Source: an uncultured Oscillospiraceae bacterium
GTDB lineage: Bacteria > Bacillota > Clostridia > Oscillospirales > Acutalibacteraceae
NCBI GenBank assembly: GCA_963931525.1
Contig: OZ007023.1
Location: 1,878,993-1,942,992 of the forward strand
DNA length: 64,000 nucleotides
Direction of reading: 5' to 3'
Shown here: positions 9,980-40,293 of the stretch, one piece after another
How the letters are laid out: every line of letters begins with the position of its first letter
Position numbering within the stretch: the first letter of the stretch is position 1
Notes under the pieces: model-generated
What the model was told of the DNA's origin: nothing
Database searches by the model: none
What the model saw: the letters and a program-made list of their open reading frames with translations, nothing else
Made by a program: the position numbers and the translations under genes

Positions 9980-10381
9980 TTACCTCGACACCTTTGCTCT
10001 TAGGATATCCAAACATTCGCCACAGTGTAAACCACCATAGTAATCGAGTAACCCAAATCGAATATCCATTCGGCCACTATCTTCATCGGTGACCATAGTA
10101 CCTTGTCTTTTCATAAGCTCCTTTCCGGAATCGTCAGAGGAGTTTTCCTCCAACTCCTTCTTGTATACCTTTCTTAAATATTCATCAAAAATAGTTCTTC
10201 GAATCAAGGCCTTCTTTCCAATTTTATAGACCGAACCGGCTTCACGTGCCATACGTGTAAACACCTTCAGGCCGAGTCCATAATAATCGGCGCCTTGATA
10301 TAGTGTTATAAAATCATGCTTCTGCATCTCGATATCTTCGTCGTCAAGCATATCTGAGAACATCCAAAGGTTTCCACTCAT
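9980..10381 (-). CDS. Excisionase/HTH_17-like small DNA-binding protein (low-GC islet)
   Basis: RBS GAGGAGG. The motif GADYYGLGLKVFTRMAREAGSVYKIGKKALIRRTIFDEYL matches the excisionase-type winged-helix pattern (.A..aGA.yk.g...LI.R..FeeYL). The family assignment was made by eye. Confidence 0.55.
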   Translation of the reverse strand: MSGNLWMFSDMLDDEDIEMQKHDFITLYQGADYYGLGLKVFTRMAREAGSVYKIGKKALIRRTIFDEYLRKVYKKELEENSSDDSGKELMKRQGTMVTDEDSGRMDIRFGLLDYYGGLHCGECLDILRAKVSR

Positions 10382-25244: not shown

Positions 25245-26135
25245 TTACGCGCCGCGCTCGTCGCCGAAGAAGAACAGGGCAACCGTGCCGGGGCCTGTGT
25301 GTGCGCCGATGACCGTGCCGATGCTGTTGATCATCACCTTGCCGTCAAGGTTCGGGAAAGTCGCTTCCACACGGTCGGCGACCGCACGGGCATCCGCTTC
25401 GCAGGCGGAATGCGAGATAAAGCATTTGCCGCTGTAATCGCGCCCGCCCTCGGCGTGTTCCACCATTTTGGAGACGATCTCGTCGATCGCTTTCACCTTA
25501 CCGCGGCATTTCTGGCGCGGGATGAGCTTACCCTCGTTGTTGACATTCAACAGCGGGCAGATCTTGAGCACCGTGCCGAAGAAGCCCGCCACGGGCGTGA
25601 CGCGCCCACCGCGAATATAGCTGGTCAAATCCGTCGAGAAGAACCAATGGTGCAGACGCAGCTTATTTTGCTCCAGATAATCGCAGACTTCCTCGGCGGA
25701 TTTCCCGCTGTCGCGCAGATCGGCGGCTTTGTCCACCAAAAGCCCGTACCCCGAAGAAGCCGCAAGGGAATCGACGATATACAGCTTCGCGTCCGGATAC
25801 TTTTCCGTAAGCGTTTCCCGCGCGATGCGCGCCGAGTTTGCAGAGCCCGAAAGCCCGCTCGAAAACGCGATGTGCAGCACTTCCCTGCCCGCTTTCAAAA
25901 ATGGCTCGAAGTATTCCACATACTGCTGGACATTGATCTGCGAGGTGGTCGGCTGCGCGCCGTCGGCGATGCGCCGGTAAAACTCGTCAAAGGGAATGGA
26001 CTGCCCGAGGTCGTCGAGGTATTCCTTGCCGCCCATTTGAAAATGGAAGCAGGTAAAGTGAATATCGCGTTCCTCAAAATACGACAGCGGCAGATCCGCC
26101 GTCGAGCAGCAAGATAAAATAAAATCAGATCGCAT
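25245..26135 (-). CDS. DegV-family fatty-acid-binding protein
   Basis: 296 aa with the DegV-type layout (ILSCCSTADLP..., SSGLSGS, ...VDSLAASSGYG). Confidence 0.88.
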   Translation of the reverse strand: MRSDFILSCCSTADLPLSYFEERDIHFTCFHFQMGGKEYLDDLGQSIPFDEFYRRIADGAQPTTSQINVQQYVEYFEPFLKAGREVLHIAFSSGLSGSANSARIARETLTEKYPDAKLYIVDSLAASSGYGLLVDKAADLRDSGKSAEEVCDYLEQNKLRLHHWFFSTDLTSYIRGGRVTPVAGFFGTVLKICPLLNVNNEGKLIPRQKCRGKVKAIDEIVSKMVEHAEGGRDYSGKCFISHSACEADARAVADRVEATFPNLDGKVMINSIGTVIGAHTGPGTVALFFFGDERGA

Positions 26136-26156
26136 GGTTTTGTCTCCCGTTTTGTT

Positions 26157-27743
26157 TTATGTATTTTCTTTCGCGGCGCGGAGCTGTTCGCTGATTCGGA
26201 ACTCCTTGCCGTCGGCACCGAGGTGATAGAGCGGAACGCGTTTGACGTTCCATTTGCGTTTTTCAAGCCGGGAGTAGTACACGCCCGTCTTGCGCCAATA
26301 GGTCTTGAGCCAATCGAGCCGCTTATGGAAATCCTTGTAGCGGCGCAATTCAGGCTTTGTCCACGCGACCTCCGCGACGGCGGCGATGCGCGGGAACATG
26401 GCGAACTGCAGCGCCTGCTCGGAATCGAGCCACTCCGACCAATGCGTACACTCTATGCCGCGCACGCGCTGGTTCGGCTTGCTGAAACCGACCTTGGATG
26501 GCTTAAAGCTGTATGTCTTTTTCAGCGGGATGTTCGCATAAGAAATATCCAGATAGAAAAAGGCGTCCGGCGACAAAATGAAGTCGCGCTTATAGGATTG
26601 CGCACGCACCGCGCTGCGGTTGAACGGGTGCCAGAACTGGCAGATGATGCTTTCGTCAAAGCCGTCGCCGATGCAGTCGTTCCACGCGATGGTGGTTTTT
26701 CCGTATTTCTTGACGATCTCGTTGACGCGGCTCATAAACAGCCCCTGCAGCGCCTTGCCGTCCTTTAAGCCGTTCTCCTCCATAAGCGCGCGGCACTTCG
26801 GGCATTTTTCCCAGACCTTATGTCCCTTCGACGCCTCGTCGCCGCCGATGTGGAAATATTTGCCGGGAAACAGCGCGCAAAGCTCGCCGAACAGGGTATC
26901 TAAGAAGGCATAGACCTCGTCGTTCCCGGCGCAGAGGATCGTGTCGAAGATCCCGTTCTCACAAGCGACCTCCACCGATTCGCCGAAGCAGGAAAGCTGC
27001 GGATACGCCGCAAGGATCGCCGTGGTGTGCCCGGGGATGTCGAATTCGGGGATCACGTCGATGTGCAGCGACGCGGCGTAAGCCACGACCTCGCGGATCT
27101 CCTCTTGCGTATAGTAGTGGAAATATTCCCCGCCGCGGTGCTCCAGCCCGCAGCCTTCAAAGCCCGCGTATTTGCGCTTCGCGCCGACAGACGTAAGCTC
27201 GGGGAACAGCTTGCTTTCCACGCGGAAGCCCTGGTCGTCGGAAAGGTGCCAGTGCAGCGTGTTGAGCTTGAGCATCGCCATGGAATCGAGCACGCGCTTC
27301 ACAATATCCTTGCCGAAGAAATGGCGCGCGTCGTCGATCTGTACCCCACGGTATTTATAAAGCGGCGCATCCTCAATGAAAAGCCCTTCCACGGTCGCTT
27401 TGCCGTTCTGCTTTTTTGCCTGCATCAAAATCGTGCGCAGCGTCACAGCACCGTAAAACGCACCCGACGGGTCGGAGGCCTCAATCAAAATGCCCTCATT
27501 CGAAACGCGCAGGCGGTAGCTTTCCGCTGCCATCCCCTCCGCCTTTTTGATCTTGATCGCGCCCTCGTCCTCACGCGGCTTGGTCTTCAGATAAGCGGTC
27601 AAATAATTCCCTGCATCCAAAAATTCCTTTGCACAAAGCACCTGTGTGCCCGACGACACGGTATAGCTGCCCGGCTCCTTCGTATAGCGGTTGGGCTTGG
27701 GCACGATATTATATTTCAGCACAACAATTCCTCCCGGAAGCAT
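26157..27743 (-). CDS. Beta-N-acetylhexosaminidase (GH20)
   Basis: LNTLHWHLSDDQGFRVES and FHIGGDE catalytic blocks. The start is approximate (MLPGG or the nearby VLKYNIVPKP). Confidence 0.9.
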   Translation of the reverse strand: MLPGGIVVLKYNIVPKPNRYTKEPGSYTVSSGTQVLCAKEFLDAGNYLTAYLKTKPREDEGAIKIKKAEGMAAESYRLRVSNEGILIEASDPSGAFYGAVTLRTILMQAKKQNGKATVEGLFIEDAPLYKYRGVQIDDARHFFGKDIVKRVLDSMAMLKLNTLHWHLSDDQGFRVESKLFPELTSVGAKRKYAGFEGCGLEHRGGEYFHYYTQEEIREVVAYAASLHIDVIPEFDIPGHTTAILAAYPQLSCFGESVEVACENGIFDTILCAGNDEVYAFLDTLFGELCALFPGKYFHIGGDEASKGHKVWEKCPKCRALMEENGLKDGKALQGLFMSRVNEIVKKYGKTTIAWNDCIGDGFDESIICQFWHPFNRSAVRAQSYKRDFILSPDAFFYLDISYANIPLKKTYSFKPSKVGFSKPNQRVRGIECTHWSEWLDSEQALQFAMFPRIAAVAEVAWTKPELRRYKDFHKRLDWLKTYWRKTGVYYSRLEKRKWNVKRVPLYHLGADGKEFRISEQLRAAKENT

Positions 27744-27829
27744 GCGGATCCCCGCGCGAAAATATCCCGTGCACCGACATACAGCGCACAAAGACATTAT
27801 GACAAATCACGCGGGGTTTTGCAAGCCTT

Positions 27830-28468
27830 TTATCGGATTTTCTCGGCGATTTTTTCAAAGAGCTCCACGATCTTAAAACGCGCTTCAAACCGGGGGCTGC
27901 GCGTCACGACGTCCTCCTCTTCATCGGTCAGCGCATCGTCGAGCGTCACCTCGCCCTCGGCGGCAGGCAGGCAAAGCGGCGGGAACATCACGCACCACCA
28001 ATTTTGTCCCTCGCCGTTTCCGAGGATGACCCGCACCGCCGTGTAAACGCCCGCGGGCAGCGTTACCGCGTCGTCATAGGTACGCGTTGCAAAAAAGTCC
28101 TGCCCGATCTCGACCGTGACGCCGTAATCCATACCGTTTTCCGCGAGCACGTCCTCTGCCGCTTTTTGCAGATGGTCGATATCGCTTTGCAGCACCTGCT
28201 GCGCGTCCTCGACGGTCATCGTTCCGTCGAACAGCGCGCCGCCCGCTTCCAGCACCGCGTCGCGCACTTTGAGCTTGACCGCCTGGTCTGCTTCGCTGTC
28301 GGAATTGGCGATAACATGCATGCGAAGCACATCCTCTCGCACTTGCCCGCATACCGCACCGAACGACGTGACGCTCAGCAATGCGGCGATCAGGAAGCCG
28401 CAGAGTACGGACAGCTCCGCTTTGCGGCGGGTCTCTTTGGTCAGGCGGAATTTTCGTTTTGTCTGCAT
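27830..28468 (-). CDS. spoIIR: Stage II sporulation protein R
   Basis: LRMHVIANSDSEADQAVKLKVRDAVL and WWCVMFPPLC signatures, with an N-terminal TM helix. Start at MQTKRKF. Confidence 0.88.
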   Translation of the reverse strand: MQTKRKFRLTKETRRKAELSVLCGFLIAALLSVTSFGAVCGQVREDVLRMHVIANSDSEADQAVKLKVRDAVLEAGGALFDGTMTVEDAQQVLQSDIDHLQKAAEDVLAENGMDYGVTVEIGQDFFATRTYDDAVTLPAGVYTAVRVILGNGEGQNWWCVMFPPLCLPAAEGEVTLDDALTDEEEDVVTRSPRFEARFKIVELFEKIAEKIR

Positions 28469-28542
28469 ATATGTTTCAATCCTTTCGTTTTGAAAAGCGG
28501 TTTTGCTTCTCGCAACAAAAGGATTGACGGGATTCAAACGAT

Positions 28543-28986
28543 TTATACAATATTTTCCTGTTCCCGCCGCCAGCGCATCCACAATTCGGGTTCTCCTGTA
28601 TTTTCATCCGTCGATATACACTGCAAAGCAAAGCCCTCGCGCCCGTAAAATGCGGCGGCACGTGTGTTCTTTTGGTAGACACAGAGCGTAAGAACAGGAT
28701 ACTTTGTCTTAGCAAAGTCCAAAAGCGCTTTGCCGATCCCCTGTCCGCGGCAGGTTTCATCTACAAAAAGCCCTTCGATATGCCCGTCGCAAAGCCCGAT
28801 AAACCCACGCACAAGATCGTTTTCCTTAGCTGTGTATACCTCGCTTTGCGGCAGCTGATTTTCCACAGCGGGCAGGTTGCTTTCCCAATACGTTTTTGGG
28901 ATAAAGGCGTGCGCCTGTAAATTTCCGGAAAGCCAGATCCGCAAAACCGCCTGTAAATCGGCGGTGTGCAGACGTTCAATATGCAT
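28543..28986 (-). CDS. GNAT-family N-acetyltransferase
   Basis: Start MHIERLHTADL. Acetyl-CoA loop is LFVDETCRGQGIGKALLDFA. Confidence 0.85.
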   Translation of the reverse strand: MHIERLHTADLQAVLRIWLSGNLQAHAFIPKTYWESNLPAVENQLPQSEVYTAKENDLVRGFIGLCDGHIEGLFVDETCRGQGIGKALLDFAKTKYPVLTLCVYQKNTRAAAFYGREGFALQCISTDENTGEPELWMRWRREQENIV

Positions 28987-29041
28987 AGGTTTATTCCCTT
29001 CAAAAAAGGCGGCAGGATTTCCCGCCGCCTTTGCAAAATCG

Positions 29042-30490
29042 TTATTTGAGCACGCTGATGGCGTCGGTGATGGTTTTTTCCATCGCCTCGCGGCCGTATT
29101 TGTCGACCTCATTCTTGTCGCGCGCTTCATGTGTTAAGCAGCCTGCGCCGCCGATACACCCGCCGACGCACGCCATACCCTCGATAAAGTTGTTCGGGAG
29201 CACGCCTTTCGACGCTTTAAGAAGCGCCAGACGGCATTCCTCAATGCCGTCGCAGGCGATCGGCTTATAGTCAAAGTCAATATTCTGCTCTTTCAGCGCC
29301 TGCTCCACCGCGTCGCGAAGTCCGCCGCTGCGCGCGAAAATACGTCCGAAATACGAAGCATTGTCGAGCGCCTCCTCGGGCAGTGCGGAAAAGTCGATGT
29401 CGCGGCTGTCAAACAGCGCCTGCAATTCCTCGAAGGTCAAAACGGAATCTACGATGGGCTTGACGCGATCGAGCTGGATCTCCATCTTCTTCGCCGTGCA
29501 GGGCCCGATAAAGACGATCTTGCAGTCCGGCTCACGATCGCGGATATATTTTGCGATCGTCGCCATGGGCGAAAGGTTATGGGAGATGTTGTCCGCGAGC
29601 TTCGGGAAGCTCTTGCGGATATAATCTACGAACGCAGGACAGCATGAGCTTGTTAAAAAGCCCTTTTCCGCAAGCTCCTGCGCTTCGGTATAGGACACCA
29701 TATCCGCGCCGAGCGCCGCTTCGATGACGCTGTAAAAGCCGAGCTTTTTGATCGCGGCAATGACCTGCCCGAGCTTGGCATAGGTAAATTGGCTCGCGAT
29801 AGAGGGCGCGACGATGGCATAGGTCTTATATGCCGTATTGTTTTGGCTCTTTTTAAGCATGCTGATAACATCCAGAATATAGGATTTATCGGCAATCGCG
29901 CCGAACGGGCACATATATTCGCACGCGCCGCAGGAAATGCACTTATCGTTGTCAATGTGTGCGGCGCGCATCTCGTCGTTTTTCATGGAGATCGCCTTGA
30001 CCTTACAGGCGCGCTCACACGGGCGAACATAATTGGTGATCGCCGAATACGGGCAGACCTTGGCGCATGCGCCGCAGTTGACGCACTTGGTTTTGTCGAT
30101 GTGCGCCTTCTGGTTCTCGTCAAAGGTGATCGCGTCTTTCGGGCAGACATCCTCACAGCGGTGCGCGATGCAGCCGCGGCAGTCCTGCGAGACCTGATAG
30201 CCGCTGGCTGGGCATTCGTCGCAGGCGATCTCAATGACCTCAATGACATTGGGGTTGGTCTTATCCCCGCCGCATGCCATTTTGATACGCTCGGCAATGA
30301 CGGCGCGCTCTTTGTAAACACAGCAGCGCATGGTGGCTTTCGGACCGGGCGCCACGACCTTTGCAATATCGTTGAAGCTGTTGGCGAGCTGGAATTCGTC
30401 GCCGTCAAAAGCAATGCGCGCCACCTCACGCAGCACCTTGTATTTCAGGTACTGCACCTTGGTATCAAATTTGCGTCCTTCTTTTCCCAT
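29042..30490 (-). CDS. [FeFe]-hydrogenase catalytic subunit with N-terminal [4Fe-4S] ferredoxin-like domains (HfsD/HydA2-like)
   Basis: H-cluster motifs TSSCCPAF (L1), GPCTAKKME (L2) and EGMACVGGCIGG (L3). Several CxxCxxCxxxCP clusters are present. Confidence 0.9.
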   Translation of the reverse strand: MGKEGRKFDTKVQYLKYKVLREVARIAFDGDEFQLANSFNDIAKVVAPGPKATMRCCVYKERAVIAERIKMACGGDKTNPNVIEVIEIACDECPASGYQVSQDCRGCIAHRCEDVCPKDAITFDENQKAHIDKTKCVNCGACAKVCPYSAITNYVRPCERACKVKAISMKNDEMRAAHIDNDKCISCGACEYMCPFGAIADKSYILDVISMLKKSQNNTAYKTYAIVAPSIASQFTYAKLGQVIAAIKKLGFYSVIEAALGADMVSYTEAQELAEKGFLTSSCCPAFVDYIRKSFPKLADNISHNLSPMATIAKYIRDREPDCKIVFIGPCTAKKMEIQLDRVKPIVDSVLTFEELQALFDSRDIDFSALPEEALDNASYFGRIFARSGGLRDAVEQALKEQNIDFDYKPIACDGIEECRLALLKASKGVLPNNFIEGMACVGGCIGGAGCLTHEARDKNEVDKYGREAMEKTITDAISVLK

Positions 30491-30503
30491 TCCGGTTTCT
30501 CCT

Positions 30504-31676
30504 CTAAAAATAGCTGACCTTCACGCGCTTGCCAAGCGATTTCAGCCGCTCGGAAAGTTCTTCCACCAAATGCATTTTGATGTTGAAGTTGATCGGAAGG
30601 TCGGGATTCTGATGCGCGGGGTTGACCGCCGTACCGACGAAGAAATTGACATCGGTCGCCTCTTCCAAAAGCAGCCGCGCTATACGCGAAGCGCCGTCCT
30701 CCTTGACGCTCCAATCCGCATAAATGCTGTCCGCCTCGCCGTAGCTGTTGGCATATTCCAGCACGCGGCTCATGGTGATGACACCCTCGGTGACCAGATC
30801 GACGCCCTCGATCTTTGCGATGGGCGGGATGTCGGGGTCGAGGTAGTCGAGCTGCGTTTCCACAGGCTTGCCTAAGAATTCCCCCGCAAGCGTGGAGGTC
30901 GTACCGCCGCTGACGATGTGCTTGCCCTCTTTTGCAAAGAACAGGGTCATCATCTTATTGACATCCTTGGGGTCGCGCGGCGGCCCGAACAGCAGATTGA
31001 CGGATTTGCGCCGACGGATCTTGACGGTGCAAACGGTGGTGTCATCCCCCGGTTTTCCGCCGTACAATCGGCAGCACTCGTCCAGAAGCAGAGACGAAAC
31101 AGTCTTTGCGGTGAAATCCGGACGAACCATTTTTTCAAGGAATTCTACAATCTCCTCGCGCTGCCAGCCGAAGTTCATCGTTGTGCCGACGCCCGCCCAG
31201 ATCGCGCCGTCGCTGGTAAATACCAGAAAATCGTTTTCGTGCAGATCGATTTTTGTTTTATAAATCGTCTTGCCGTCGATCTTCGTCTCGGTCTGGGGAT
31301 AGTCAAAGCTTTTGCCGTCGCGCAGCAATATGAGCTTCGGGTTATCATATTGTATAATTTCTGCCTCGCGGTTGTCAATAGTTCTGACGATGGTAAATGT
31401 AGAATATGCAACTTTTCGCACTTCGCAGATAGGCAAGGTGGCGGCGATGGTATCGACGCATGATTCAAGGCTCATGCCGTTGGCAACCATGGTGGAAATG
31501 ATCGTCGAGGTCAGCGTAGACAAAATGCTCGCTTTCACCCCGCTGCCGAGACCGTCCGCCAAGACCACCACATGGCTGTCGTCGCTTTGGTCGATGACCT
31601 CCACATGGTCCCCGCAGAGCTGCTCGCCGAATTTGTTGACGCTCATAAAGCCGATGTCTGTACAAAGGTCATTCAT
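30504..31676 (-). CDS. PP2C/SpoIIE-family serine phosphatase with an extra C-terminal domain (HfsC-like)
   Basis: FGEQLCGDHVEV...VVLADGLGSGVKASI...FTSDG...GDDTTV are SpoIIE-type phosphatase blocks. It overlaps the end of hydS by 8 nt. Confidence 0.88.
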   Translation of the reverse strand: MNDLCTDIGFMSVNKFGEQLCGDHVEVIDQSDDSHVVVLADGLGSGVKASILSTLTSTIISTMVANGMSLESCVDTIAATLPICEVRKVAYSTFTIVRTIDNREAEIIQYDNPKLILLRDGKSFDYPQTETKIDGKTIYKTKIDLHENDFLVFTSDGAIWAGVGTTMNFGWQREEIVEFLEKMVRPDFTAKTVSSLLLDECCRLYGGKPGDDTTVCTVKIRRRKSVNLLFGPPRDPKDVNKMMTLFFAKEGKHIVSGGTTSTLAGEFLGKPVETQLDYLDPDIPPIAKIEGVDLVTEGVITMSRVLEYANSYGEADSIYADWSVKEDGASRIARLLLEEATDVNFFVGTAVNPAHQNPDLPINFNIKMHLVEELSERLKSLGKRVKVSYF

Positions 31677-33357
31677 CTTTGAGAGACTCCTTCAGATTGG
31701 TCAGAGCAATTTTGGTTTCCGCCGTGGTCTCGCCCAAGAGCGAGGCGATCTCCTGCACGATACGCATCTGCTTTTCGATCACCTTATCCGTGACCTCGAT
31801 GGTATGGCGGCTGATCTCCTCTTTTTTCGCCTTTTCCTTTTCCTCTTCCGTAATGTCGCGCATGATGCACATAAGGATGTGGTACAGGCGGTCGTAAATA
31901 ATGGTCTCCTCAACGTATTTGTCGTACTCCGCAAGATAGACGCGCTTGTCGTGGATGCCCACCCCGCCCGAAAGGACTTCGATGAAATCAAACGGTTCGA
32001 GAATGCGCACGACCGGCTCGCCGAGAACATCGTTCTGATTGCGGATATTGAGGATCTGCCGTGCGGCGGCGTTGATCTGCTGCACTTCCATATCCTCGTT
32101 GAGGATCAAAATGCCGTTGGGCGTATTCTGAATGATGGTATCGGAGAAGGTCTCCGCCTTTTCTTTAAGGAACGGCAGGCACATGGAAAGCTCCGCCTTG
32201 CCGTCGAGCACTGCCTGCGCCTTTTCACGGCAGGTGTTGTAGCCGCACGAGCCGCAGTTGAGCTCATCCTCAGGGCGCACCTTGCCCATTTTGCGCAAGA
32301 TCTCCTCAATAGCGCGGCTGCCCGCGCGCGGTTTTTCTTTTTTGAGATAGATCAGGTTTTTCGCAAGCTCCGCGCTCTCGGGCTGTTCGACGGGAAAATC
32401 CGCACCTTCTGCTTTTTTAGCATATTTCTCCACCGCAAGGTAACCCTGCACGGGCGCACGGTGCGACCGGCGCATGGTAGGCCCCCCGATGCAGCTGCCG
32501 GGGCACGCGGACATTTCGATAAAGCAGTTGTGTACGTTCCCGTTGATGACGTCCTGGATCGCGTTGATACACGCCGACATACCGTCCACTGCAAGGTAGC
32601 TGTATTTCGGGCTGTCGCAGCGCATGGATTTGAGGATGCCGCCGGCCGTCGGGAAAAAGCGCGCCTTGCCCGCAGGCTCATCGTCCTCCGGGACTGGCTC
32701 AGGCGTGATCCCCGCTTCGGCGAACCACTCGTCCAGTTCTTCAAAGGTGAGCACGCAGTCCACGATGCCGGGGTAGTCCTCGCCCTCCGCTTTTTTGGAG
32801 ATGCACGGCCCGATAAAGAGTGTCTTGGCGCCCGGATGCTCTTTTTTGAGAAGCGAGCAGTGCGCCTGCATGGGCGACTGCACCTTGGCAAGACAGGGAA
32901 GCGCCTCGGTAAAATGCTTTTGTATGAGCAAATTGACCGTATGGCAGCAAGTGGCGATGATGACGTCCTGCGTCCCCTCGTCTGCCATGCGGTCATATTC
33001 GTTTTTCACCATGGTCGCGCCGACGGCAGTCTCCTGCGCATCAGCAAATCCAAGCTGCATGAGCGCTTTGCGCATACCCGCAATGCCGACGCCCTCGTAG
33101 TTTGCGGCAAACGAGGGCGCCAGACTTACATATACGGGCGCGTCGCCCGCGAGCAGCGCCTTCGCAGATGATAAATCATTGCGAATTTCCTTGGCGTTCT
33201 GCGGGCAGGCGACAAAGCACATTCCGCAAAGGACGCATTCGTCCTCGATGATCTGCGCCTGCGAACCCGAAAAGCTGATGGATTTCACCGGGCAGTTGCG
33301 GATACATTTGTAGCAGTTTTTGCAGTTGGACTTTTTCAGGTTGATATAGTTGGACAT
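31669..33357 (-). CDS. Sensory-type [FeFe]-hydrogenase homologue with a C-terminal PAS domain (HydS/HfsB-like)
   Basis: Two N-terminal 4Fe-4S motifs. H-domain motifs ATCCHTV, GPCISKKAE and EMSACPGSCIGG, plus an extra CGSCGYNTC motif. This is followed by a PAS-like segment (IIQNTPNGILILNEDMEVQQINAAARQIL) and a coiled tail. Confidence 0.88.
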   Translation of the reverse strand: MSNYINLKKSNCKNCYKCIRNCPVKSISFSGSQAQIIEDECVLCGMCFVACPQNAKEIRNDLSSAKALLAGDAPVYVSLAPSFAANYEGVGIAGMRKALMQLGFADAQETAVGATMVKNEYDRMADEGTQDVIIATCCHTVNLLIQKHFTEALPCLAKVQSPMQAHCSLLKKEHPGAKTLFIGPCISKKAEGEDYPGIVDCVLTFEELDEWFAEAGITPEPVPEDDEPAGKARFFPTAGGILKSMRCDSPKYSYLAVDGMSACINAIQDVINGNVHNCFIEMSACPGSCIGGPTMRRSHRAPVQGYLAVEKYAKKAEGADFPVEQPESAELAKNLIYLKKEKPRAGSRAIEEILRKMGKVRPEDELNCGSCGYNTCREKAQAVLDGKAELSMCLPFLKEKAETFSDTIIQNTPNGILILNEDMEVQQINAAARQILNIRNQNDVLGEPVVRILEPFDFIEVLSGGVGIHDKRVYLAEYDKYVEETIIYDRLYHILMCIMRDITEEEKEKAKKEEISRHTIEVTDKVIEKQMRIVQEIASLLGETTAETKIALTNLKESLKDE

Positions 33358-33398
33358 ATCGATCCCCCGATTCCGTCTGCAAGTGTTCTGTTATTTTG

Positions 33399-33638
33399 TT
33401 ACAGCTTCGCAAGCACGTTCTGCTTGAAGAAATCATCGACCGTTTCGGGAGAAACCGAGAACAGCTCGTCATCCACGGTCACGGAAACGCCGTTGCGGCA
33501 GTTGCCCATGCAGAATTTCCCGCTGAGCTCCACACGGTCTTTGAGGTCGTTCTCCGCCACAAGCTGCTGCAGCCGCTCGACCACGGCGCGCGAGCCCTTC
33601 AGATGGCAGGAGCTTCCGATACAGACAGTCACTTTCAT
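33399..33638 (-). CDS. Thioredoxin-like [2Fe-2S] ferredoxin (NuoE/HydC-type; HfsA-like)
   Basis: 79 aa. Cys pattern CIGSSC ... CMGNC. Confidence 0.8.
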   Translation of the reverse strand: MKVTVCIGSSCHLKGSRAVVERLQQLVAENDLKDRVELSGKFCMGNCRNGVSVTVDDELFSVSPETVDDFFKQNVLAKL

Positions 33639-33671
33639 CGCTGATTCTCCTTTATACAGTGCTGCGGACGC

Positions 33672-34421
33672 TTATTCGTAGTCCACAACGTCCAGCCACT
33701 TCATAAGCAGCTCTTTTTCCTCCGGGTTACGCTTGACGCTTTGGGAGGCGGCGACGATCGGCAGCCATTTCTGGACATACTGCTTTGCCGTATCGCTCTT
33801 TTTGCAGAACAGGTTAAGATACTTTTCCGCCAACTCCGTCTCGCCCTTCAAATAGAAGACCAAATAGGTGCGCGCTGCGTCCGCAGAGGCGTTGCCCTGT
33901 GTGACATGCGCCCAGTCAATGATATAGTTGACGCCGTCATCCCCGACGATGACGTTGCTCGGGCGGAAATCGCCGTGGCAGACCTTGTTGTGCTTGGGCA
34001 TGCCCTCCAAGCGCGTATGCAGCTCATAGCGCGTGGTGGCATCAAGGTCGGTCTCGTTGATCTTGCGGTTCATCTTATCCTTGAGCTTATTGAGCAGCGG
34101 CGCTTTCTGGTTGTGGATGCGCAGCTGGATGTCCACGAACAGCTCCAGATATTCATCGACCTTTTCCGGATGTTCGTCCATGAGCTGACCGAGGGTCTTG
34201 CCCTCGATGTATTCGGACGCGATCGCCCATTTGCCGTCTACAACGCCGACTTCCAGCAGCTTCGGCACGGGCAGACCCGTTTCCTCGGCGCGCGCCTGAT
34301 TGAGCGCTTCATTGAGGATATCGGACTTTTTGTAGTCCTCGTCGAACACTTTGACGGCACGGTTGCCGTCACGATAAACGGTTTTCGCGGTACGGACCGC
34401 AATGACCTTTTCGAGTTTCAT
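33672..34421 (-). CDS. Protein-kinase-fold phosphotransferase (APH/choline-kinase-like)
   Basis: 249 aa. Catalytic loop is HGDFRPSNVIV and the metal-binding motif is IIDWAHV. Confidence 0.8.
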   Translation of the reverse strand: MKLEKVIAVRTAKTVYRDGNRAVKVFDEDYKKSDILNEALNQARAEETGLPVPKLLEVGVVDGKWAIASEYIEGKTLGQLMDEHPEKVDEYLELFVDIQLRIHNQKAPLLNKLKDKMNRKINETDLDATTRYELHTRLEGMPKHNKVCHGDFRPSNVIVGDDGVNYIIDWAHVTQGNASADAARTYLVFYLKGETELAEKYLNLFCKKSDTAKQYVQKWLPIVAASQSVKRNPEEKELLMKWLDVVDYE

Positions 34422-34433
34422 ATATGCTCCTCC

Positions 34434-37043
34434 TTATTCGCCGTAATATGCCTTGAGATACATCTCTTTGATCTCGCTCATCAGCGGATAGCGCGGGTTC
34501 GCGCCGGTGCACTGGTCGTTGAACGCCTGCTCGACCATTTCGTCGAGGGTGTCAAGGAAGTATTTCTCATCCACGCCGTATTCGCGGATCGTCTTTTTCA
34601 CGCCGCAGTGTTCTTTCAGGGCGTCGATCTTAGCGATAAGACCTTCGAGCTTTGCTTCGTCCGTCTTGCCCTGTACACCCAGCGCGTCGGCGACCTCTGC
34701 ATAACGCGCAAGCGTATGCGGGTGGTCATACTGCGGGAAGGTGCCCATCTTGGTGGGAACTTCTGCCGCGTTGAAGCGCAGGACGTTGTCGATCAGCAGC
34801 GCGTTTGCAATACCGTGCGGCAGATGATGGAACGCACCGAGCTTGTGCGCCATGGAGTGGCAGACGCCAAGGAATGCATTTGCGAACGCCATACCTGCCA
34901 TGGTGGCGGCGTTGCCCATCTTTTCACGCGCAACGGGGTCGTTTTGTCCGTTATCATAAGCACGCGGCAGATACCGGAAGATCATTTGCAGCGCACGGAT
35001 CGCAAGGCCGTCGGTATAATCGGTCGCCATAACGGAGGCATACGCTTCAAGCGCATGCGTTACGGCGTCGATACCGGAGGCCGCAGTCAAGCCCTTCGGC
35101 GCGCTCATCATCAGGTCTGCGTCCACAATCGCCATATTCGGCATCAGCTGATAGTCTGCAAGGGGCCACTTTACGCCGGTCTCGGCATCGGTGATGATCG
35201 CAAACGGCGTGACCTCAGAACCCGTACCGGCCGAAGTCGGGATCGCGATGAAATACGCCTTTTCGCCCATCTTCGGGAAGGTATAGACACGCTTGCGGAT
35301 ATCCATGAAGTCCATTGCCATGTCGGAGAAGTCCACGTCCGGATGCTCATACATCACCCACATGATCTTCGCGGCGTCCATGGCCGAACCGCCGCCGATG
35401 GCGATGATGGTATCCGGCTCAAACTGGCGCATCTGGTCGGTACCCTTTTCGGCGCACTGGAGCGTCGGGTCGGGCGCAACTTCGTAGAAGCAGGTGTGGC
35501 GGATGCCCATTTCGTCGAGCTTGTCTTCGATCGGCTTGGTGTAGCCGTTATTATACAGGAAGGAGTCCGTAACAATGAATGCCTTTTTCTTGCCGAGCAC
35601 ATTTTTGAGTTCGTCAAGCGCAACGGGCAGGCAGCCCTTTTTGAAGTACACCTTTTCGGGCGCGCGGAACCACAGCATATTTTCCCTTCTCTCTGCAACG
35701 GTTTTGATATTCAGCAGATGCTTGACGCCGACGTTCTCGGAAACCGAGTTGCCGCCCCAGGAGCCGCAGCCAAGCGTCAGAGAGGGTGCAAGCTTGAAGT
35801 TGTAAAGGTCGCCGATGCCGCCCTGCGAGGATGGCGTATTGACAAGGATGCGGCAGGTCTTCATGCGCTCGCCGAAGCGTGCGAGTTTATCCTGCTCGGT
35901 CACGGCGTTGAGGTACACGGAAGAGGTATGACCGTAGCCGCCGTCCGCGATGAGGTGCTCCGCTTTATCCATGGCCTCGTCGAAGTCCTTGGCCTTATAC
36001 ATGGCAAGCACGGGAGACAGCTTTTCGTGTGCGAATTCCTCGGAAATATCCACGCTCTCGACCTCGCCGATGAGGATCTTTGTGGTCTCGGGGACGCTCA
36101 CGCCCGCAAGCTCTGCGATCTTATGGGCGGGCTGACCGACGATCTTCGCATTGAGCGCGCCGTTGATGATGATGGTCTTGCGAACCTTTTCGATCTCCGC
36201 TTTCTTGAGGAAATAGCAGCCGCGCGCGGTGAATTCGTCCTTGACTTTCTTATAGACCTTGTCGAGCACGATGACCGACTGTTCGGAAGCGCAGATCATG
36301 CCGTTGTCGAAGGTCTTGGAGTGGATGATGGAGTTGACGGCAAGCAGGATGTCGGCGGTGTCGTCGATGATCGCCGGCGTATTGCCTGCGCCGACGCCCA
36401 GTGCCGGTTTGCCGGAGGAATATGCGGATTTGACCATGCCGGGGCCGCCCGTAGCAAGAATGATGTCCGCCTCTTTCATCAGAAGCGTGGTCATCTCCAG
36501 AGACGGGATGTCGATCCAGCCGATGATATCCTCAGGCGCACCCGCTGCCACAGCGGCTTCGAGCACGACCTTTGCCGCAGCAATGGTGGATTTCTTCGCA
36601 CGCGGGTGGGGGCTGATGATAATGCCGTTGCGGGTCTTTAAGGAAATGAGCGTCTTAAAGATCGCGGTCGAGGTGGGGTTCGTGGTCGGGATGACCGCCG
36701 CGATAACACCGATGGGCTCAGCGACACGCTTGATGCCGAACGCGGGATCCTCCTCTACAACGCCACAGGTTTTTGTGTTTTTATAGGCGTTATAGATATA
36801 TTCGGCGGCGTAGTGGTTCTTGATGACCTTATCTTCCACAACACCCATGCCGGTTTCTTCCACCGCCATTTTGGCGAGCGGGATACGCTGCTTATTGGCA
36901 GCGATGGCAGCGGCACGGAAGATCTTATCCACCTGCTCCTGGGTATAGGTCGCAAAGGTCTCCTGCGCCTTGCGGACCCGTTTGAGCGTCTGTTCGAGCT
37001 TCTCAACCGAATCCACGATCTCGTAAGTTTTGGTCTTTTCCAT
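34434..37043 (-). CDS. adhE: Bifunctional acetaldehyde-CoA/alcohol dehydrogenase
   Basis: 869 aa from MEKTKTYEIV behind AAAGGAG. N-terminal ALDH domain and C-terminal Fe-ADH domain (GGGSAMDAAK, HSMAHKLG). The ORF-track start at 37280 is an upstream extension into rex. Confidence 0.96.
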   Translation of the reverse strand: MEKTKTYEIVDSVEKLEQTLKRVRKAQETFATYTQEQVDKIFRAAAIAANKQRIPLAKMAVEETGMGVVEDKVIKNHYAAEYIYNAYKNTKTCGVVEEDPAFGIKRVAEPIGVIAAVIPTTNPTSTAIFKTLISLKTRNGIIISPHPRAKKSTIAAAKVVLEAAVAAGAPEDIIGWIDIPSLEMTTLLMKEADIILATGGPGMVKSAYSSGKPALGVGAGNTPAIIDDTADILLAVNSIIHSKTFDNGMICASEQSVIVLDKVYKKVKDEFTARGCYFLKKAEIEKVRKTIIINGALNAKIVGQPAHKIAELAGVSVPETTKILIGEVESVDISEEFAHEKLSPVLAMYKAKDFDEAMDKAEHLIADGGYGHTSSVYLNAVTEQDKLARFGERMKTCRILVNTPSSQGGIGDLYNFKLAPSLTLGCGSWGGNSVSENVGVKHLLNIKTVAERRENMLWFRAPEKVYFKKGCLPVALDELKNVLGKKKAFIVTDSFLYNNGYTKPIEDKLDEMGIRHTCFYEVAPDPTLQCAEKGTDQMRQFEPDTIIAIGGGSAMDAAKIMWVMYEHPDVDFSDMAMDFMDIRKRVYTFPKMGEKAYFIAIPTSAGTGSEVTPFAIITDAETGVKWPLADYQLMPNMAIVDADLMMSAPKGLTAASGIDAVTHALEAYASVMATDYTDGLAIRALQMIFRYLPRAYDNGQNDPVAREKMGNAATMAGMAFANAFLGVCHSMAHKLGAFHHLPHGIANALLIDNVLRFNAAEVPTKMGTFPQYDHPHTLARYAEVADALGVQGKTDEAKLEGLIAKIDALKEHCGVKKTIREYGVDEKYFLDTLDEMVEQAFNDQCTGANPRYPLMSEIKEMYLKAYYGE

Positions 37044-37069
37044 TGTACCGTACTCCTTTATCGTCGTGA

Positions 37070-37720
37070 TTACATGGACTGCTTTAGATGGGCGGACAGC
37101 ACTGCGAGAGACGAGGCGATATTCTCGTTTTGCAACAGCACCCCTTCGGGGACACGCAGATGCGTCGGCGCGAAGTTCCAGATCGCGCGCACCCCGCCGG
37201 ACACCAGAAGGTCGCAGACCTCCTGCGCACTTTCGGCGGGAACGGTAATGATCCCGATATGGATGCCCATGCGCCGGCAAAGGTCGGTGAGCTTTTCCAT
37301 GGGGAGGATCATCGGCGCATCCTTGCCGTACATCGCCGCCGCGTCGGCATTGCGGTCGAATGCCGCGACCAGACGGATGCCGAACTGCGCAAAGCCTTCA
37401 TAGCCGAGCAGCGCGCGGCCGAGCTTGCCTGCGCCCACGAGCACCGCTTCGTTGACGCTGTCGTAGCCGAGGAAGGCTTCGATATCCCGGATGAGCCGGT
37501 CGGTCTCGAAGCCGGTTTTCGGCTTGCCCGCACAAGAACTGACGGCGGCGATGTCTTTGCGCACCTGCACCTCATTAAGCCCCAAGGCTGCGGCGATCTT
37601 CGGCGCGGAAATGTGCGCCGCCTCTTCGCCTTGCAGACGTTTGAGGTAATCGAGATACATGGGAAGCCGCAGAAGCGTTTGTCTGGAGATGCTCCGAACG
37701 CCCGTTTGCGCGCTGCACAT
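37070..37720 (-). CDS. rex: Redox-sensing transcriptional repressor Rex
   Basis: ISRQTLLRLPMYLDYL..., Rossmann motif VLVGAGKLGRAL, and ...IWNFAP. The start at 37720 is consistent with the promoter at 37760-37788. Confidence 0.92.
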   Translation of the reverse strand: MCSAQTGVRSISRQTLLRLPMYLDYLKRLQGEEAAHISAPKIAAALGLNEVQVRKDIAAVSSCAGKPKTGFETDRLIRDIEAFLGYDSVNEAVLVGAGKLGRALLGYEGFAQFGIRLVAAFDRNADAAAMYGKDAPMILPMEKLTDLCRRMGIHIGIITVPAESAQEVCDLLVSGGVRAIWNFAPTHLRVPEGVLLQNENIASSLAVLSAHLKQSM

Positions 37721-37759
37721 AAGCCCTATCGCCCCAATCAGTATTCTTGTATTGGTTTC

Positions 37760-37788
37760 ATGATAGCGCAAGAAATCCCGCTTGTCAA
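37760..37788 (-). promoter_or_regulatory. Sigma-A-type promoter for rex-adhE
   Basis: On the minus strand: TTGACA (37783-37788), a 17-nt spacer, then TATCAT (37760-37765). Confidence 0.5.
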
Positions 37789-37795
37789 TGGAAAT

Positions 37796-37813
37796 TTGTT
37801 AATTTTTTAACAT
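37796..37813. promoter_or_regulatory. Rex operator (box 1)
   Basis: TTGTTAATTTTTTAACAT matches the clostridial Rex consensus TTGTTAA-N4-TTAACAA at 17 of 18 positions. Confidence 0.65.
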
Positions 37814-37822
37814 CTGTTTCCC

Positions 37823-37840
37823 TTGACAATTTTTTAACAG
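37823..37840. promoter_or_regulatory. Rex operator-like site (box 2)
   Basis: TTGACAATTTTTTAACAG has the same architecture with 3 mismatches. It lies 27 bp from box 1. Confidence 0.45.
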
Positions 37841-37912
37841 GACGCGCGTGCGTTTTGTGCAGATTTACGGCAGAAAAATGGGATGGAAGACTGTTAGGAA
37901 GGCAAAAAGGAA

Positions 37913-37954
37913 GGACGGCTCTGTGTTCTTTGAGACACAGAACCGTCCTCTGTC
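37913..37954. repeat. Left terminal hairpin repeat of the low-GC cassette; also a terminator for 37965..38531
   Basis: GGACGGCTCTGTGT...ACACAGAACCGTCC followed by TCTGTC. The 26 nt TTTGAGACACAGAACCGTCCTCTGTC are identical to the reverse complement of 40616-40641. On the minus strand the hairpin is followed by TTCCTTTTTGCC. Confidence 0.7.
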
Positions 37955-37964
37955 TTTGTATTGA

Positions 37965-38531
37965 TTAGTCTAAAATATATATAATATTTCCAGAAGCAAC
38001 CATATAGCAAACCATAAAATATACAACGGGAATATATGTAAAACAAATACCTTTAAGAAGTTGTTCGCCGCCAATCGACAGTTTTTCAGATAACCTAAAA
38101 CGGAGAAGCAACGGCCATAGACCGATTATATAAGTAATAATACATACGATAATCAAGGCCACAATAATCAATATTGGAACAATAAAAAAAATTACCCTTA
38201 ACACCAGATCCATTCTCTCGTGCAAATAATTAACGGCATGTATCACCTGAAAAATATTATAGATGGTTGGGGCGGAAAGTGCCGCTGTATAAGGAATAGC
38301 CCAAAAAAAACGCCGCGCTTTTGTCTCCTCCCCTTCAGGAACAAAATCAATACCGCACAAAATAAAAGAAAATACAAAAAATACTGCTGTGCATATTAAA
38401 ATTACTTTTTCGGGATTGTTGGTCAGGATTGTAGCAAGGCCCTCAACGCCCATATTGTATCCAATAATTACCAAAGCGGCAATAACTGCAAATATGATAG
38501 CAACCAATCCTGCGTTAAAAAAAACGACCAA
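37965..38531 (-). CDS. Polytopic membrane protein of unknown function (low-GC cassette)
   Basis: 188 aa with about 5-6 hydrophobic helices and AT-rich codon usage unlike the flanking genes. Confidence 0.7.
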   Translation of the reverse strand: MVVFFNAGLVAIIFAVIAALVIIGYNMGVEGLATILTNNPEKVILICTAVFFVFSFILCGIDFVPEGEETKARRFFWAIPYTAALSAPTIYNIFQVIHAVNYLHERMDLVLRVIFFIVPILIIVALIIVCIITYIIGLWPLLLRFRLSEKLSIGGEQLLKGICFTYIPVVYFMVCYMVASGNIIYILD

Positions 38532-38621
38532 GATATCATCCCCTTCAAAAGGCAGGTTTGACTCAATAAACAGGTAACTTTTTAGCCATGGGTTTTCTGC
38601 AAGATTTCTGTCCCAAAGCGA

Positions 38622-39044
38622 TCACACATATATATCCGATTCAGACAAATCAACTGCACTGTAGTAGATCGGCATTTCGCCTGAAAACTCCAGCACAAGC
38701 ATATCACCGTCAATTTCAAAGTGATAGGTGTGTGGAAAAACAAGCGCATTCCCATCTAAAATCAAAGAATCCCCTTCGATTCTGTAATTAAACTCGTCCT
38801 CGCCGCTGGCAAGTGTCCCGTCCTCAAAAAATGTGATATATTCACTTTCAGGGTAGTAATCAAAATCAGCATTTTCCGCGCTGTATTCGGTTACTTGCCA
38901 AGTACCCAAAATCTTTTTTTCAGAGGTTCCCGCGTTGCTCGCAACAGCAACGGTGATAAACACAAGAACAAGGGCAGCGCACGCGGCAACTATCCATTTG
39001 CGCGGCACGGTTTTCAGAGTTTGTCCTAACGCTCCATTTCCCAT
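38622..39044 (-). CDS. Membrane-anchored lipocalin-like protein (low-GC cassette)
   Basis: 140 aa with an N-terminal TM helix. The remainder is GTWQVTEY...ITFFEDGTL...Y.IEGDSLIL...FEIDGDMLVL, a pattern typical of small lipocalin-like domains. Confidence 0.6.
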   Translation of the reverse strand: MGNGALGQTLKTVPRKWIVAACAALVLVFITVAVASNAGTSEKKILGTWQVTEYSAENADFDYYPESEYITFFEDGTLASGEDEFNYRIEGDSLILDGNALVFPHTYHFEIDGDMLVLEFSGEMPIYYSAVDLSESDIYV

Positions 39045-39169
39045 ATGTAAAACGTCTCCTAAATCATTTTCATTCGCTGTACTATTTTATTCTTGTCGCC
39101 GCATGTACAATACAGCGCTCGCAAAGTGTACAAAAGTTCGCGATTCGATTTTGGTATGCAAAGTCAAAA

Positions 39170-40156
39170 TTACGTTTTAGCGGGTAAAAGATCCGTATAT
39201 TTCAGATTTCCGGTTTGTTCATCCACTCTGACAGAGAAAGACCCGATCAGCGTTAAATCGTTAAAGTTTTCGATATTGTCGATGTCGTCCGTACCCGTCA
39301 AAAATCCTTTCAACCCCTCGCGTGCAAACAAGGTACGTAAGGTGGAAAGATTAGAAATGAGATAGGTAGAGTCAAGCGCAGAAGCAGAATCGTAATCTGC
39401 TTGTTCAAGTAACAATTCATCCGCTATCAAATCGTAACATTCAAGCGAGCCGTCCGGATACAGAACGGAATAGTACCCGCAAACAGAAGCATCCCCCTCC
39501 CGTATACTGCCCGCAGTACAAACCTGTTCGGATGTTTCCGGGGCAACAACTTTGGAAACAAACGCATAAATTCCGGACTGGCTATGTCTGTAAATATAAT
39601 AATCTGCGGAGAAACGGGGGGAAATGGAACACCGCGTATCCCGAAAATCATAGGTATTCGTTATATACGATCCACCCGCCTTTTCAACAATGTTCAGCTT
39701 TGGATATATCTCAATATTATCGTTGCTCTCCTGCTCAAGCGAAATTTGAATAAGTTCCTCTTCACCATCTGCATCGATATCAAAGATCTGATTTGATATC
39801 GAAATGTTTTGACTTTCCTGTTTACGTAAAAATTCGGAAAGAGGATTTTCATTAACAGAATAGGTGATAGAACGAGCATCGACTTGAATGGGGTTAGCAT
39901 CAAGATAGTTGTCCCAAACATGATTAGCTTGATAGGTAAAATACACGATAACTAAAACGCTTAGAATAACGGCTGCCGTTAGCACGATTGCAAAGATACG
40001 AATTGTTTTCTTTCCATTAGAATCAGGTACAGCGGATGTATCCTCGTACAGCGACTTTTCTAAATCATTTTGTGGTTCCCGGCTGAGTGCTTGTCTACGA
40101 GAAGAACGGCATGTTTGTGGTTCATTCGACTTGTCTCCGCGACGGTTACAAAACAT
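39170..40156 (-). CDS. Single-pass membrane protein with an extracytoplasmic domain of about 250 aa, function unknown (low-GC cassette)
   Basis: 328 aa. Basic N-terminus, TM helix IRIFAIVLTAAVILSVLVIVYF, and no recognised motif. Confidence 0.65.
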   Translation of the reverse strand: MFCNRRGDKSNEPQTCRSSRRQALSREPQNDLEKSLYEDTSAVPDSNGKKTIRIFAIVLTAAVILSVLVIVYFTYQANHVWDNYLDANPIQVDARSITYSVNENPLSEFLRKQESQNISISNQIFDIDADGEEELIQISLEQESNDNIEIYPKLNIVEKAGGSYITNTYDFRDTRCSISPRFSADYYIYRHSQSGIYAFVSKVVAPETSEQVCTAGSIREGDASVCGYYSVLYPDGSLECYDLIADELLLEQADYDSASALDSTYLISNLSTLRTLFAREGLKGFLTGTDDIDNIENFNDLTLIGSFSVRVDEQTGNLKYTDLLPAKT

Positions 40157-40180
40157 TTACACACACCCTTATATGTTTGA

Positions 40181-40293
40181 TTAGTGATATATCACTAATA
40201 TTATAGCTACAGAACTTTTCGTTGTCAATATAAAGTTTCAAAAACTTAGTGATTTATAACTAACAGTCGTATGCATTAGTGATTTATCATCAT
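40181..40293. promoter_or_regulatory. Three operator-like TTAGTGAT boxes in the divergent promoter region
   Basis: The perfect 18-bp palindrome TTAGTGATATATCACTAA lies at 40181-40198. TTAGTGATTTATAACTAA lies at 40246-40263 and TTAGTGATTTATCATCAT at 40276-40293. Confidence 0.55.

Follow-up and report, generated by a model that had tools for sequence, protein, structure and literature searches.

A Rex-headed cluster with a putative phosphatase-linked sensory [FeFe]-hydrogenase in Candidatus Fimenecus, probably orthologous to an operon of Ruminococcus albus 7

Seven closely packed genes of an uncultured Oscillospiraceae bacterium raise the question of what kind of system unites a redox-sensing repressor (Rex), a bifunctional alcohol dehydrogenase (AdhE), a kinase-fold protein, a small [2Fe-2S] protein (gene fdx), a PAS-domain-bearing [FeFe]-hydrogenase (HydS), a PP2C phosphatase and a second [FeFe]-hydrogenase (HydB). 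The genes lie on the minus strand of a 64,000-nucleotide (nt) stretch of contig OZ007023.1, which is called the window in the following and for which an earlier note, made from the letters alone, had proposed a cluster devoted to the sensing of redox state and hydrogen (H2). Our analysis indicates that the cluster is probably the Candidatus Fimenecus orthologue of an operon of Ruminococcus albus 7 with an hfsABCD core, and that it probably switches fermentation to ethanol and ferredoxin-driven H2 production at high reducing pressure. The operon as such is not new. It has already been described, is real, well conserved and very widespread in gut Clostridia, and the note's remark that the gene set is known but its mechanism is not agrees with the literature, in which the cluster is described and the mechanism still called not known (PMC6776011, PMC5707799, PMC11837493, PMC13277313).

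The R. albus 7 copy was found by tblastn of plasmid records. It is located on plasmid pRUMAL01 (RUMAL_RS17350-17385), whose annotation lists on one strand rex, adhE, a phosphotransferase gene, two genes for (2Fe-2S) ferredoxin-domain proteins and one each for an [Fe-Fe] hydrogenase C-terminal-domain protein, a SpoIIE phosphatase and a 4Fe-4S dicluster protein. Identities between the window and R. albus 7 amount to 48% for Rex, 78% for AdhE, 68% for the kinase-fold protein, 63% for the ferredoxin (47% for the second R. albus ferredoxin), 58% for HydS, 62% for the phosphatase and 70% for the catalytic hydrogenase. Genes, order and orientation are the same, hydS and pp2c overlap at both loci, and the kinase-fold protein has 249 amino acids (aa) in both. 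The note had proposed a likeness to the rex/aad/hydS/hydA2 cluster of R. albus 7 and to hfsABCD; the former could be verified by alignment, the latter by means of published work. As to composition, the proposed match holds for the gene order but not for the number of genes, since the window contains seven and the commonest form of the cluster eight. There are also differences from R. albus 7. While R. albus possesses two small ferredoxins, the window has one (type 1). The window harbors a consensus-type Rex operator, which was not detected in the R. albus 7 stretch examined. Finally, the R. albus cluster resides on a plasmid, while contigs of up to 2.27 Mb encode a kinase protein identical to that of the window, suggesting that the cluster of the window is chromosomal. 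This protein is 100% identical to an entry named 'phosphotransferase [Candidatus Fimenecus stercoravium]'; Candidatus Fimenecus is a Clostridia lineage known from metagenome-assembled genomes. The window is assigned to this species or to a close relative of it. The R. albus 7 cluster is reportedly also treated by Zheng et al. (2014), a work that we know through other papers. The 421-kb plasmid pRUMAL01 is typed as mobilizable, and a LysR-family regulator gene is located directly upstream of rex (locus L081, positions 136637-152298). For R. albus, a 111-fold fall of the 'putative eight-gene cluster' was reported in co-culture with an H2 consumer (Greening et al. 2019, PMC6776011), and in the authors' view it is due to the putative sensory hydrogenase that is co-transcribed and to the associated phosphatase.

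The core of the cluster resembles the hfsABCD operon of Thermoanaerobacterium saccharolyticum and T. thermosaccharolyticum, which likewise combines a small FeS protein, a PAS hydrogenase, a Ser/Thr phosphatase and a ferredoxin-linked hydrogenase and has a regulatory tie to adhE. According to the papers, on which this comparison is based (PMC5707799, PMC11837493), hfsABCD is a four-gene operon, rex and adhE being regarded as genes apart from it, whereas in the window all of them form one unit together with the kinase gene. Ethanol yield and adhE transcripts rise after deletion of hfsA or hfsB but not after that of hfsC or hfsD, and the loss of hfsB raises rather than lowers hydrogenase activity (PMC5707799). 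Moreover, when the whole operon has been deleted, hfsD is sufficient for complementation (PMC11837493). These data bear on the idea that the ferredoxin, HydS, PP2C and HydB, instead of representing a sensor and an enzyme of its own, assemble into a single multimeric 'Hfs' hydrogenase. It would agree with the original naming in Thermoanaerobacterium and with the very tight co-occurrence of the four genes, but is highly improbable in view of the complementation by hfsD alone and of single-gene deletions with opposite phenotypes. The catalytic hydrogenase, in addition, matches the NCBIfam family 'monomeric [FeFe] hydrogenase'. To our knowledge, a phosphatase is not a known hydrogenase subunit, which also speaks against such a complex.

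ORF listing, translation and start-codon checks confirmed position, strand and spacing of the seven co-directional genes as they had been described before, and Pfam and NCBIfam bore out the domain assignments (Table 1). The gaps measure 26 nt (rex-adhE), 12 nt (adhE-kinase), 33 nt (kinase-fdx), 41 nt (fdx-hydS), -8 nt (hydS-pp2c, an overlap) and 13 nt (pp2c-hydB). Clear Shine-Dalgarno sequences precede six of the seven genes, while rex shows a weaker G-rich stretch only. With a single promoter, one terminator, gaps of at most 41 nt and the 8-nt overlap, the genes are predicted to form one transcription unit. It is bounded on both sides, because a terminator of the preceding gene and a promoter lie upstream and a further terminator follows the last gene. 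An Rfam scan of 28-39 kb did not detect any element. Within pp2c, a promoter-like sequence (TTGACA-18-TACAAT, 31349-31378, minus strand) matched the consensus at 11 of 12 positions; it is retained in L001, one of the two closest relatives, but neither in the other (L002) nor in R. albus 7, and was for this reason judged to be probably a by-product of the coding sequence.

Table 1. Positions of the genes and of the predicted regulatory elements in the window
Feature	Position	Strand	Basis and remarks
rex, redox-sensing repressor, 216 aa from ATG	37070..37720	-	NF003994; Pfam Put_DNA-bind_N and CoA_binding
adhE, bifunctional acetaldehyde-CoA/alcohol dehydrogenase, 869 aa	34434..37043	-	NF010378
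APH/choline-kinase-fold phosphotransferase ("kinase"), 249 aa	33672..34421	-	PF01636
Thioredoxin-like [2Fe-2S] ferredoxin, 79 aa, paralog type 1	33399..33638	-	PF01257
HydS/HfsB-type putative sensory [FeFe]-hydrogenase, 562 aa	31669..33357	-	Pfam Fe_hyd_lg_C, FeS, PAS
SpoIIE/PP2C phosphatase, 390 aa	30504..31676	-	PF07228 on residues 32-220
Monomeric ferredoxin-type [FeFe]-hydrogenase, 482 aa	29042..30490	-	TIGR04105
Sigma-70-type promoter TTGACA-17-TATCAT	37760..37788	-	11/12 match, top-ranking promoter-like sequence of the region
Rex box 2 (strong), TTGTTAATTTTTTAACAT on the plus strand	37796..37813		1 mismatch to TTGTTAAN4TTAACAA; ends 7 nt upstream of -35
Rex box 1 (weak), TTGACAATTTTTTAACAG on the plus strand	37823..37840		3 mismatches to the clostridial Rex consensus
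Conserved upstream block, GTAAATCTGCACAAAAC	37852..37868	-	Aligned with L001 and L002; the opposite strand contains a half-site TTGTGCA
Intrinsic terminator of the upstream gene (37965-38531)	37911..37950	-	16-bp stem, 8 G-C pairs, T-run; 5' boundary
Intrinsic terminator right after the last stop codon	about 29002..29032	-	12-bp stem, 4-nt loop, T-run; -22.5 kcal/mol

A genome collection was scanned with a HydS alignment, and the seven proteins of the window were mapped onto the 80 species-level loci obtained, which belong to Oscillospiraceae, Ruminococcaceae, Lachnospiraceae, Christensenellaceae and further groups. The core fdx-hydS-pp2c-hydB was nearly universal among these genomes. At loci with enough flanking sequence, hydS was always followed by pp2c (66 of 66) and mostly by hydB (59 of 66), while upstream of hydS, fdx was present in 55 of 56 loci, the kinase gene in 41, adhE in 34 and rex in 30. 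The 8-nt overlap of the pp2c start with the hydS stop is kept in 78 of 79 loci. The commonest architecture was rex-adhE-kin-fdx-fdx-hydS-pp2c-hydB (19 loci). Among cultivable relatives, R. albus 7, R. bicirculans and Monoglobus pectinilyticus are examples with the architecture of the window. Fifteen of the 56 clusters that keep hydS-pp2c-hydB are devoid of the kinase gene. Where it is present, it is always situated immediately upstream of the type-1 ferredoxin gene and hydS, across many families of Clostridia.

HydS revealed Pfam matches to Fe_hyd_lg_C (152 bits), FeS (PF04060, 'Putative Fe-S cluster', 40.9 bits) and PAS (24.0 bits). The protein comprises two N-terminal [4Fe-4S] motifs (C12/15/18/22 and C41/44/47/51), the H-domain, a Cx2Cx4Cx16C motif (C368/371/376/393), the PAS domain and a nearly invariant C-terminal helix. 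Residues 120-521 of the prototypical enzyme CpI were recovered from alignments of the Protein Data Bank (PDB), and residues 122-521 were aligned with both hydrogenases of the window and five members of the HydS family. All four ligands of the H-cluster, C300, C355, C499 and C503 in CpI numbering, are retained in HydS and invariant in this alignment, confirming the earlier description of the 562-aa protein as one with H-cluster motifs and a PAS domain. In the second sphere and the proton pathway, M353G, M497S and S319A occur, and the positions of E279 and E282 are not conserved. The Cys at position 299 (C137 of HydS) is kept and invariant across the family. The biochemically characterised group C enzyme of Thermotoga maritima (TmHydS) has the same domain order and a disrupted proton pathway as well; it carries A131, G177 and S267 at the equivalent sensor positions, G177 representing the M353 site and S267 the M497 site (PMC10055695). 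In contrast to the protein of the window and its family, TmHydS has Ala at position 299, where only 17% of sensory sequences contain Cys (PMC10055695). Group C subtypes differ in their partners, which may be a histidine kinase, a chemotaxis protein or a phosphatase, and subtype C3 is designated 'phosphatase-linked (putative)' in HydDB (PMC5037454). HydS of the window would correspond to the phosphatase-linked subtype. On the basis of its architecture, its cysteines and the adjacent phosphatase gene, it is regarded as a putative sensory enzyme of group C (C3). A PDB sequence search did not reveal a solved structure among the close relatives of either HydS or the 482-aa hydrogenase; both matched best to HydA subunits of bifurcating hydrogenases and prototypical enzymes such as CpI.

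Instead of H2, HydS might report the redox state of the ferredoxin or NADH pool, using the [2Fe-2S] partner and four accessory FeS clusters of its own, or it might be a slow catalyst of physiological relevance. The two N-terminal [4Fe-4S] motifs, the Cx2Cx4Cx16C motif and the adjacent [2Fe-2S] gene in 55 of 56 loci are in line with this explanation, and so is the family-wide Cys299, which belongs to the proton relay of catalytic enzymes. Besides, a functional HfsABC hydrogenase without HfsD has been considered in a paper of 2026 (PMC13277313). Nevertheless, such a role is unlikely since S319A, M353G, M497S and the loss of conservation at E279 and E282 match sensory enzymes, the deletion of hfsB raises hydrogenase activity (PMC5707799) and the R. 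albus cluster responds to the removal of H2 (PMC6776011).

The sensor's partner may be recognized by means of its C-terminus. The last 30 residues of HydS (VQEIASLLGET.AETKIAL...; residues about 530-562, window 31669-31770) are nearly invariant in 13 diverse homologues, and the motif is no less invariant in 20 clusters without a kinase than in 55 that possess one. The tail was considered as a target of the kinase, but this was rejected because the motif is just as invariant where the kinase is missing. Since the invariance of the tail tracks the phosphatase, the comparison suggests that the C-terminal helix interacts with the phosphatase, which is always present, rather than with the kinase.

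The phosphatase matched PF07228 with 55.7 bits (cut-off 25), and its GD, DGLGSG, SDG and GDDT motifs were at least 90% conserved in 40 sequences. Residues 221-390 (window 30504-31016) form a second domain of approximately 170 aa with an alpha/beta fold, for which AlphaFold2 (AF2) gave a predicted local distance difference test score (pLDDT) of 87.7. This domain had no Pfam match even at E<=10. A Foldseek search against the PDB gave no match at E<=0.001, the best ones being methylglyoxal synthases (template modelling score 0.4-0.5, E around 1e-2), and a profile search of PDB sequences returned non-significant matches only, among them a SIS phosphoheptose isomerase (E=0.09). A methylglyoxal-synthase-like nature of the modelled domain may hence serve as a lead, not as a result. 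Its loops GGTT(S) and NPAHQNP are invariant. An exhaustive search of 1.84 billion representative proteins revealed about 1000 clusters with the domain, most of them proteins of 385-395 aa in which it occupies the same position. Some proteins of 160-170 aa in this library consist of the domain alone, so that it can be considered an autonomous module. Phosphatases of the SpoIIE/RsbU type are components of partner-switching modules, and a PF07228 phosphatase beside a sensor recalls such a module. However, neither a STAS substrate nor a GHKL anti-sigma-type kinase was found by Pfam and NCBIfam among the seven proteins, and the opposing kinase, if there is one, possesses an APH fold.

The affiliation of the kinase-fold protein was studied with several approaches. 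It matched PF01636 (APH) with 61.7 bits (cut-off 23.2) and fell below the cut-off of every named NCBIfam equivalog (best TIGR02172, 66.6 versus 228). No Pkinase family was among its Pfam matches at E<=0.01. The catalytic loop reads HGDFRPSN and the metal-binding motif IDW, which differ from the Hanks-type HRDxKxxN and DFG, and the protein-kinase lysine is absent. Sixteen orthologues share K24, E38, G150, D151, N156, D169-W170 and the APH-type motif QGNxxADxA, and H149 is nearly invariant. A profile search of PDB sequences ranked the choline kinase LicA first (E=1e-6), followed by hygromycin kinase, Bud32 and APH. The best Foldseek match of the AF2 model was APH(3')-Ia (E=8e-8). As the model, whose alignment was built from close homologues only (>=88% identical), is mediocre (mean pLDDT 68.8, below 50 for residues 111-150 just before the catalytic loop), this ranking carries limited weight. 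In the sequence as well as in the fold search, Hanks kinases ranked below APH and choline kinases. Judged by its sequence, the cluster kinase is a phosphotransferase of the APH/choline-kinase type and not a Hanks-type protein kinase.

This assignment affects the phospho-relay proposed by the earlier note. That a kinase-fold protein and a phosphatase flank the sensor is correct, but a relay between proteins is an assumption because the nearest relatives of the kinase phosphorylate small molecules. The note had itself named a small-molecule kinase unrelated to signalling among the findings that would refute its proposal. The family is indeed that of APH and choline kinases, yet the location next to fdx and hydS is conserved, and the objection is only half removed. 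The protein could accordingly act on an aminoglycoside, choline or a sugar and either play no part in signalling or contribute a phosphorylated metabolite, leaving HydS and PP2C as the signalling pair. This explanation is a serious candidate, although doubtful. Pfam, the catalytic loop, the QGNxxADxA motif and the nearest solved relatives all agree with it, as do the plain NCBI name 'phosphotransferase', the loss of the gene from 15 of 56 clusters and the tail of HydS, whose invariance is independent of the kinase. By contrast, the conserved place of the gene directly upstream of the type-1 ferredoxin gene and hydS argues for a role tied to the sensor, and the structural model is only of moderate quality. 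Some APH-fold and related atypical kinases phosphorylate proteins, and a weak similarity to RIO and Bud32 was noticed here. Two further possibilities, taken together, are quite unlikely. Kinase and PP2C might communicate by way of a phosphorylated small molecule from metabolism to which the phosphatase responds as to a gate, or the kinase might be an atypical protein kinase with a target outside the known bacterial signalling families. The metabolite variant arises from the pairing of an APH/choline-like kinase with a PP2C whose private domain carries the GGTT(S) loop and weakly resembles the phospho-ligand-binding methylglyoxal synthase and SIS proteins. If either of them were true, the mechanism linking H2 to phosphorylation would be without characterised precedent.

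The catalytic hydrogenase of 482 aa reached 563 bits (cut-off 450) with TIGR04105 (FeFe_hydrog_B1), R. albus HydA2 577 bits. It is the orthologue of R. albus HydA2 and of HfsD. Concerning its classification, the labels are in conflict, since R. albus HydA2 is called 'group A1' in PMC6776011, yet both enzymes match a family labelled 'B1', which is group B in later literature. The earlier statement that the protein contains canonical motifs L1, L2 and L3 applies to L1 (TSCCP) and L3 (EGMACVGGC), while L2 reads GPCTAKK and has GPC in place of MPC (M353G). The enzyme retains E279, E282, S319 and C299 of the proton pathway; in place of R286 it has Lys. AdhE scored 1414 bits with NF010378 (cut-off 951). 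The small [2Fe-2S] protein matched PF01257 with 33.5 bits; its C6, C11, C43 and C47 recur without exception in each of the three paralog types. The window, L001 and L002 possess the type-1 ferredoxin only. Kinase-less four-gene clusters (L004, L006, L009, L013, L023, L056, L061 and L074) contain the third [2Fe-2S] subtype, which is 39-47% identical to the ferredoxin of the window, and in several of them a Rex box that is perfect or nearly so lies directly upstream of fdx.

Regulation by Rex is indicated by the repressor itself, which scored 263.7 bits with NF003994 (cut-off 130), and by its putative operator. The promoter recognized in the note was the top site of a consensus scan. The strong box adjoining it is the sole site with not more than one mismatch in the whole window, and none of 100 shuffled sequences contained one. 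Of the two Rex boxes that the note had proposed, this one stands, though the reported agreement at 17 of 18 positions includes four free Ns and amounts to 13 of 14 specified bases. The second box is weak if regarded alone. Its level is close to chance since five sites with three mismatches occur in the window while 1.5 are expected. Both closest relatives nevertheless retain its right half. Three further sites with three mismatches (at 10171, 10829 and 23958) were dismissed as chance matches. An alignment of the upstream regions of the window, L001 and L002 demonstrated that the palindrome of the strong box is retained in L002 and, by changes in both arms (ATGTGCAAAATCGCACAA), in L001, and that the -35 and -10 hexamers are conserved in both. 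The conserved block farther upstream might represent one more Rex site in degenerate form, the third, or else be bound by a different regulator. L001 and L002 have an additional Rex-like box that begins at or overlaps the -35 hexamer (TTGACAATTTTTTAACAA and TTGACAAACATTTAACAA); at 37770-37788 of the window, the right arm of this box has been lost (TTGACAAGCGGGATTTCT). Across the related loci (80 loci, 1.33 Mb), 17 of 27 core matches to the Rex box fell within 320 nt upstream of the first gene of the cluster, which corresponds to 1.8% of the sequence.

By analogy with the homologues, the orthologue of the R. albus operon would operate as follows. At a low NADH/NAD+ ratio, Rex would repress the operon including its own gene, and it would release the DNA when NADH rises. 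HydS would bind an H-cluster and be a poor catalyst, as S319A should interrupt the proton pathway and M353G and M497S correspond to TmHydS. With the small [2Fe-2S] protein as its presumable redox partner, it might report the level of H2 or reductant through the PAS domain and the C-terminal helix to the translationally coupled PP2C. This phosphatase, opposed by the APH-fold kinase where present, would set the phosphorylation state of a target, which in turn would act back on AdhE and the hydrogenase, either on their expression or on their activity. The likely outputs are AdhE as a sink for NADH and the monomeric hydrogenase as a sink for reduced ferredoxin.

Several points weigh against this interpretation. 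In the 15.7 kb of R. albus 7 that were inspected, there is no site resembling TTGTTAAN4TTAACAA with three or fewer mismatches, so that control by Rex via this operator appears to be lineage-specific and not universal. The PAS match of HydS is marginal, as the Pfam threshold lies at 22.6 bits, and its catalytic incompetence is less certain because Cys299 is kept, unlike in TmHydS. The kinase belongs to a family consisting mostly of small-molecule kinases and is missing from about a quarter of the clusters, for which reasons it may not be a member of the core relay. Furthermore, the related loci had been retrieved through two HydS peptide patterns, which biases the set towards conserved HydS, and the conservation of this protein was therefore partly selected for. 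Sensing of H2 is putative for any enzyme of group C3, and it was stated as recently as May 2026 that 'the exact mechanism ... is still not known' (PMC13277313).

Immediately upstream of the cluster, a stretch of low guanine-plus-cytosine content (38001-40200, 0.41 versus about 0.55 elsewhere) contains two ORFs of 188 and 328 aa, neither of them with a Pfam match, and a gene for a small protein with a lipocalin-like domain; this DNA may have been acquired. The downstream neighbours (25245-28986, minus strand) encode a GNAT acetyltransferase, SpoIIR (sporulation signalling), a GH20 hexosaminidase and DegV, and have no obvious tie to the cluster.

With regard to the sensor function of [FeFe]-hydrogenases, the copy of the window does not lead beyond what R. 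albus and Thermoanaerobacterium, both tractable models, already offer. The comparative results sharpen the picture, though, inasmuch as the sensor has its obligate partner in the phosphatase and not in the kinase. They also add details: the APH type of the kinase, the phosphatase's orphan domain, the retention of Cys299, the invariant sensor tail that tracks the phosphatase, the loss of one ferredoxin paralog and a lineage-specific architecture of the Rex operator. Clusters of this type govern whether gut and rumen Clostridia produce ethanol or acetate and H2, a choice which bears on interspecies hydrogen transfer, methane output and the engineering of strains for biofuel production.

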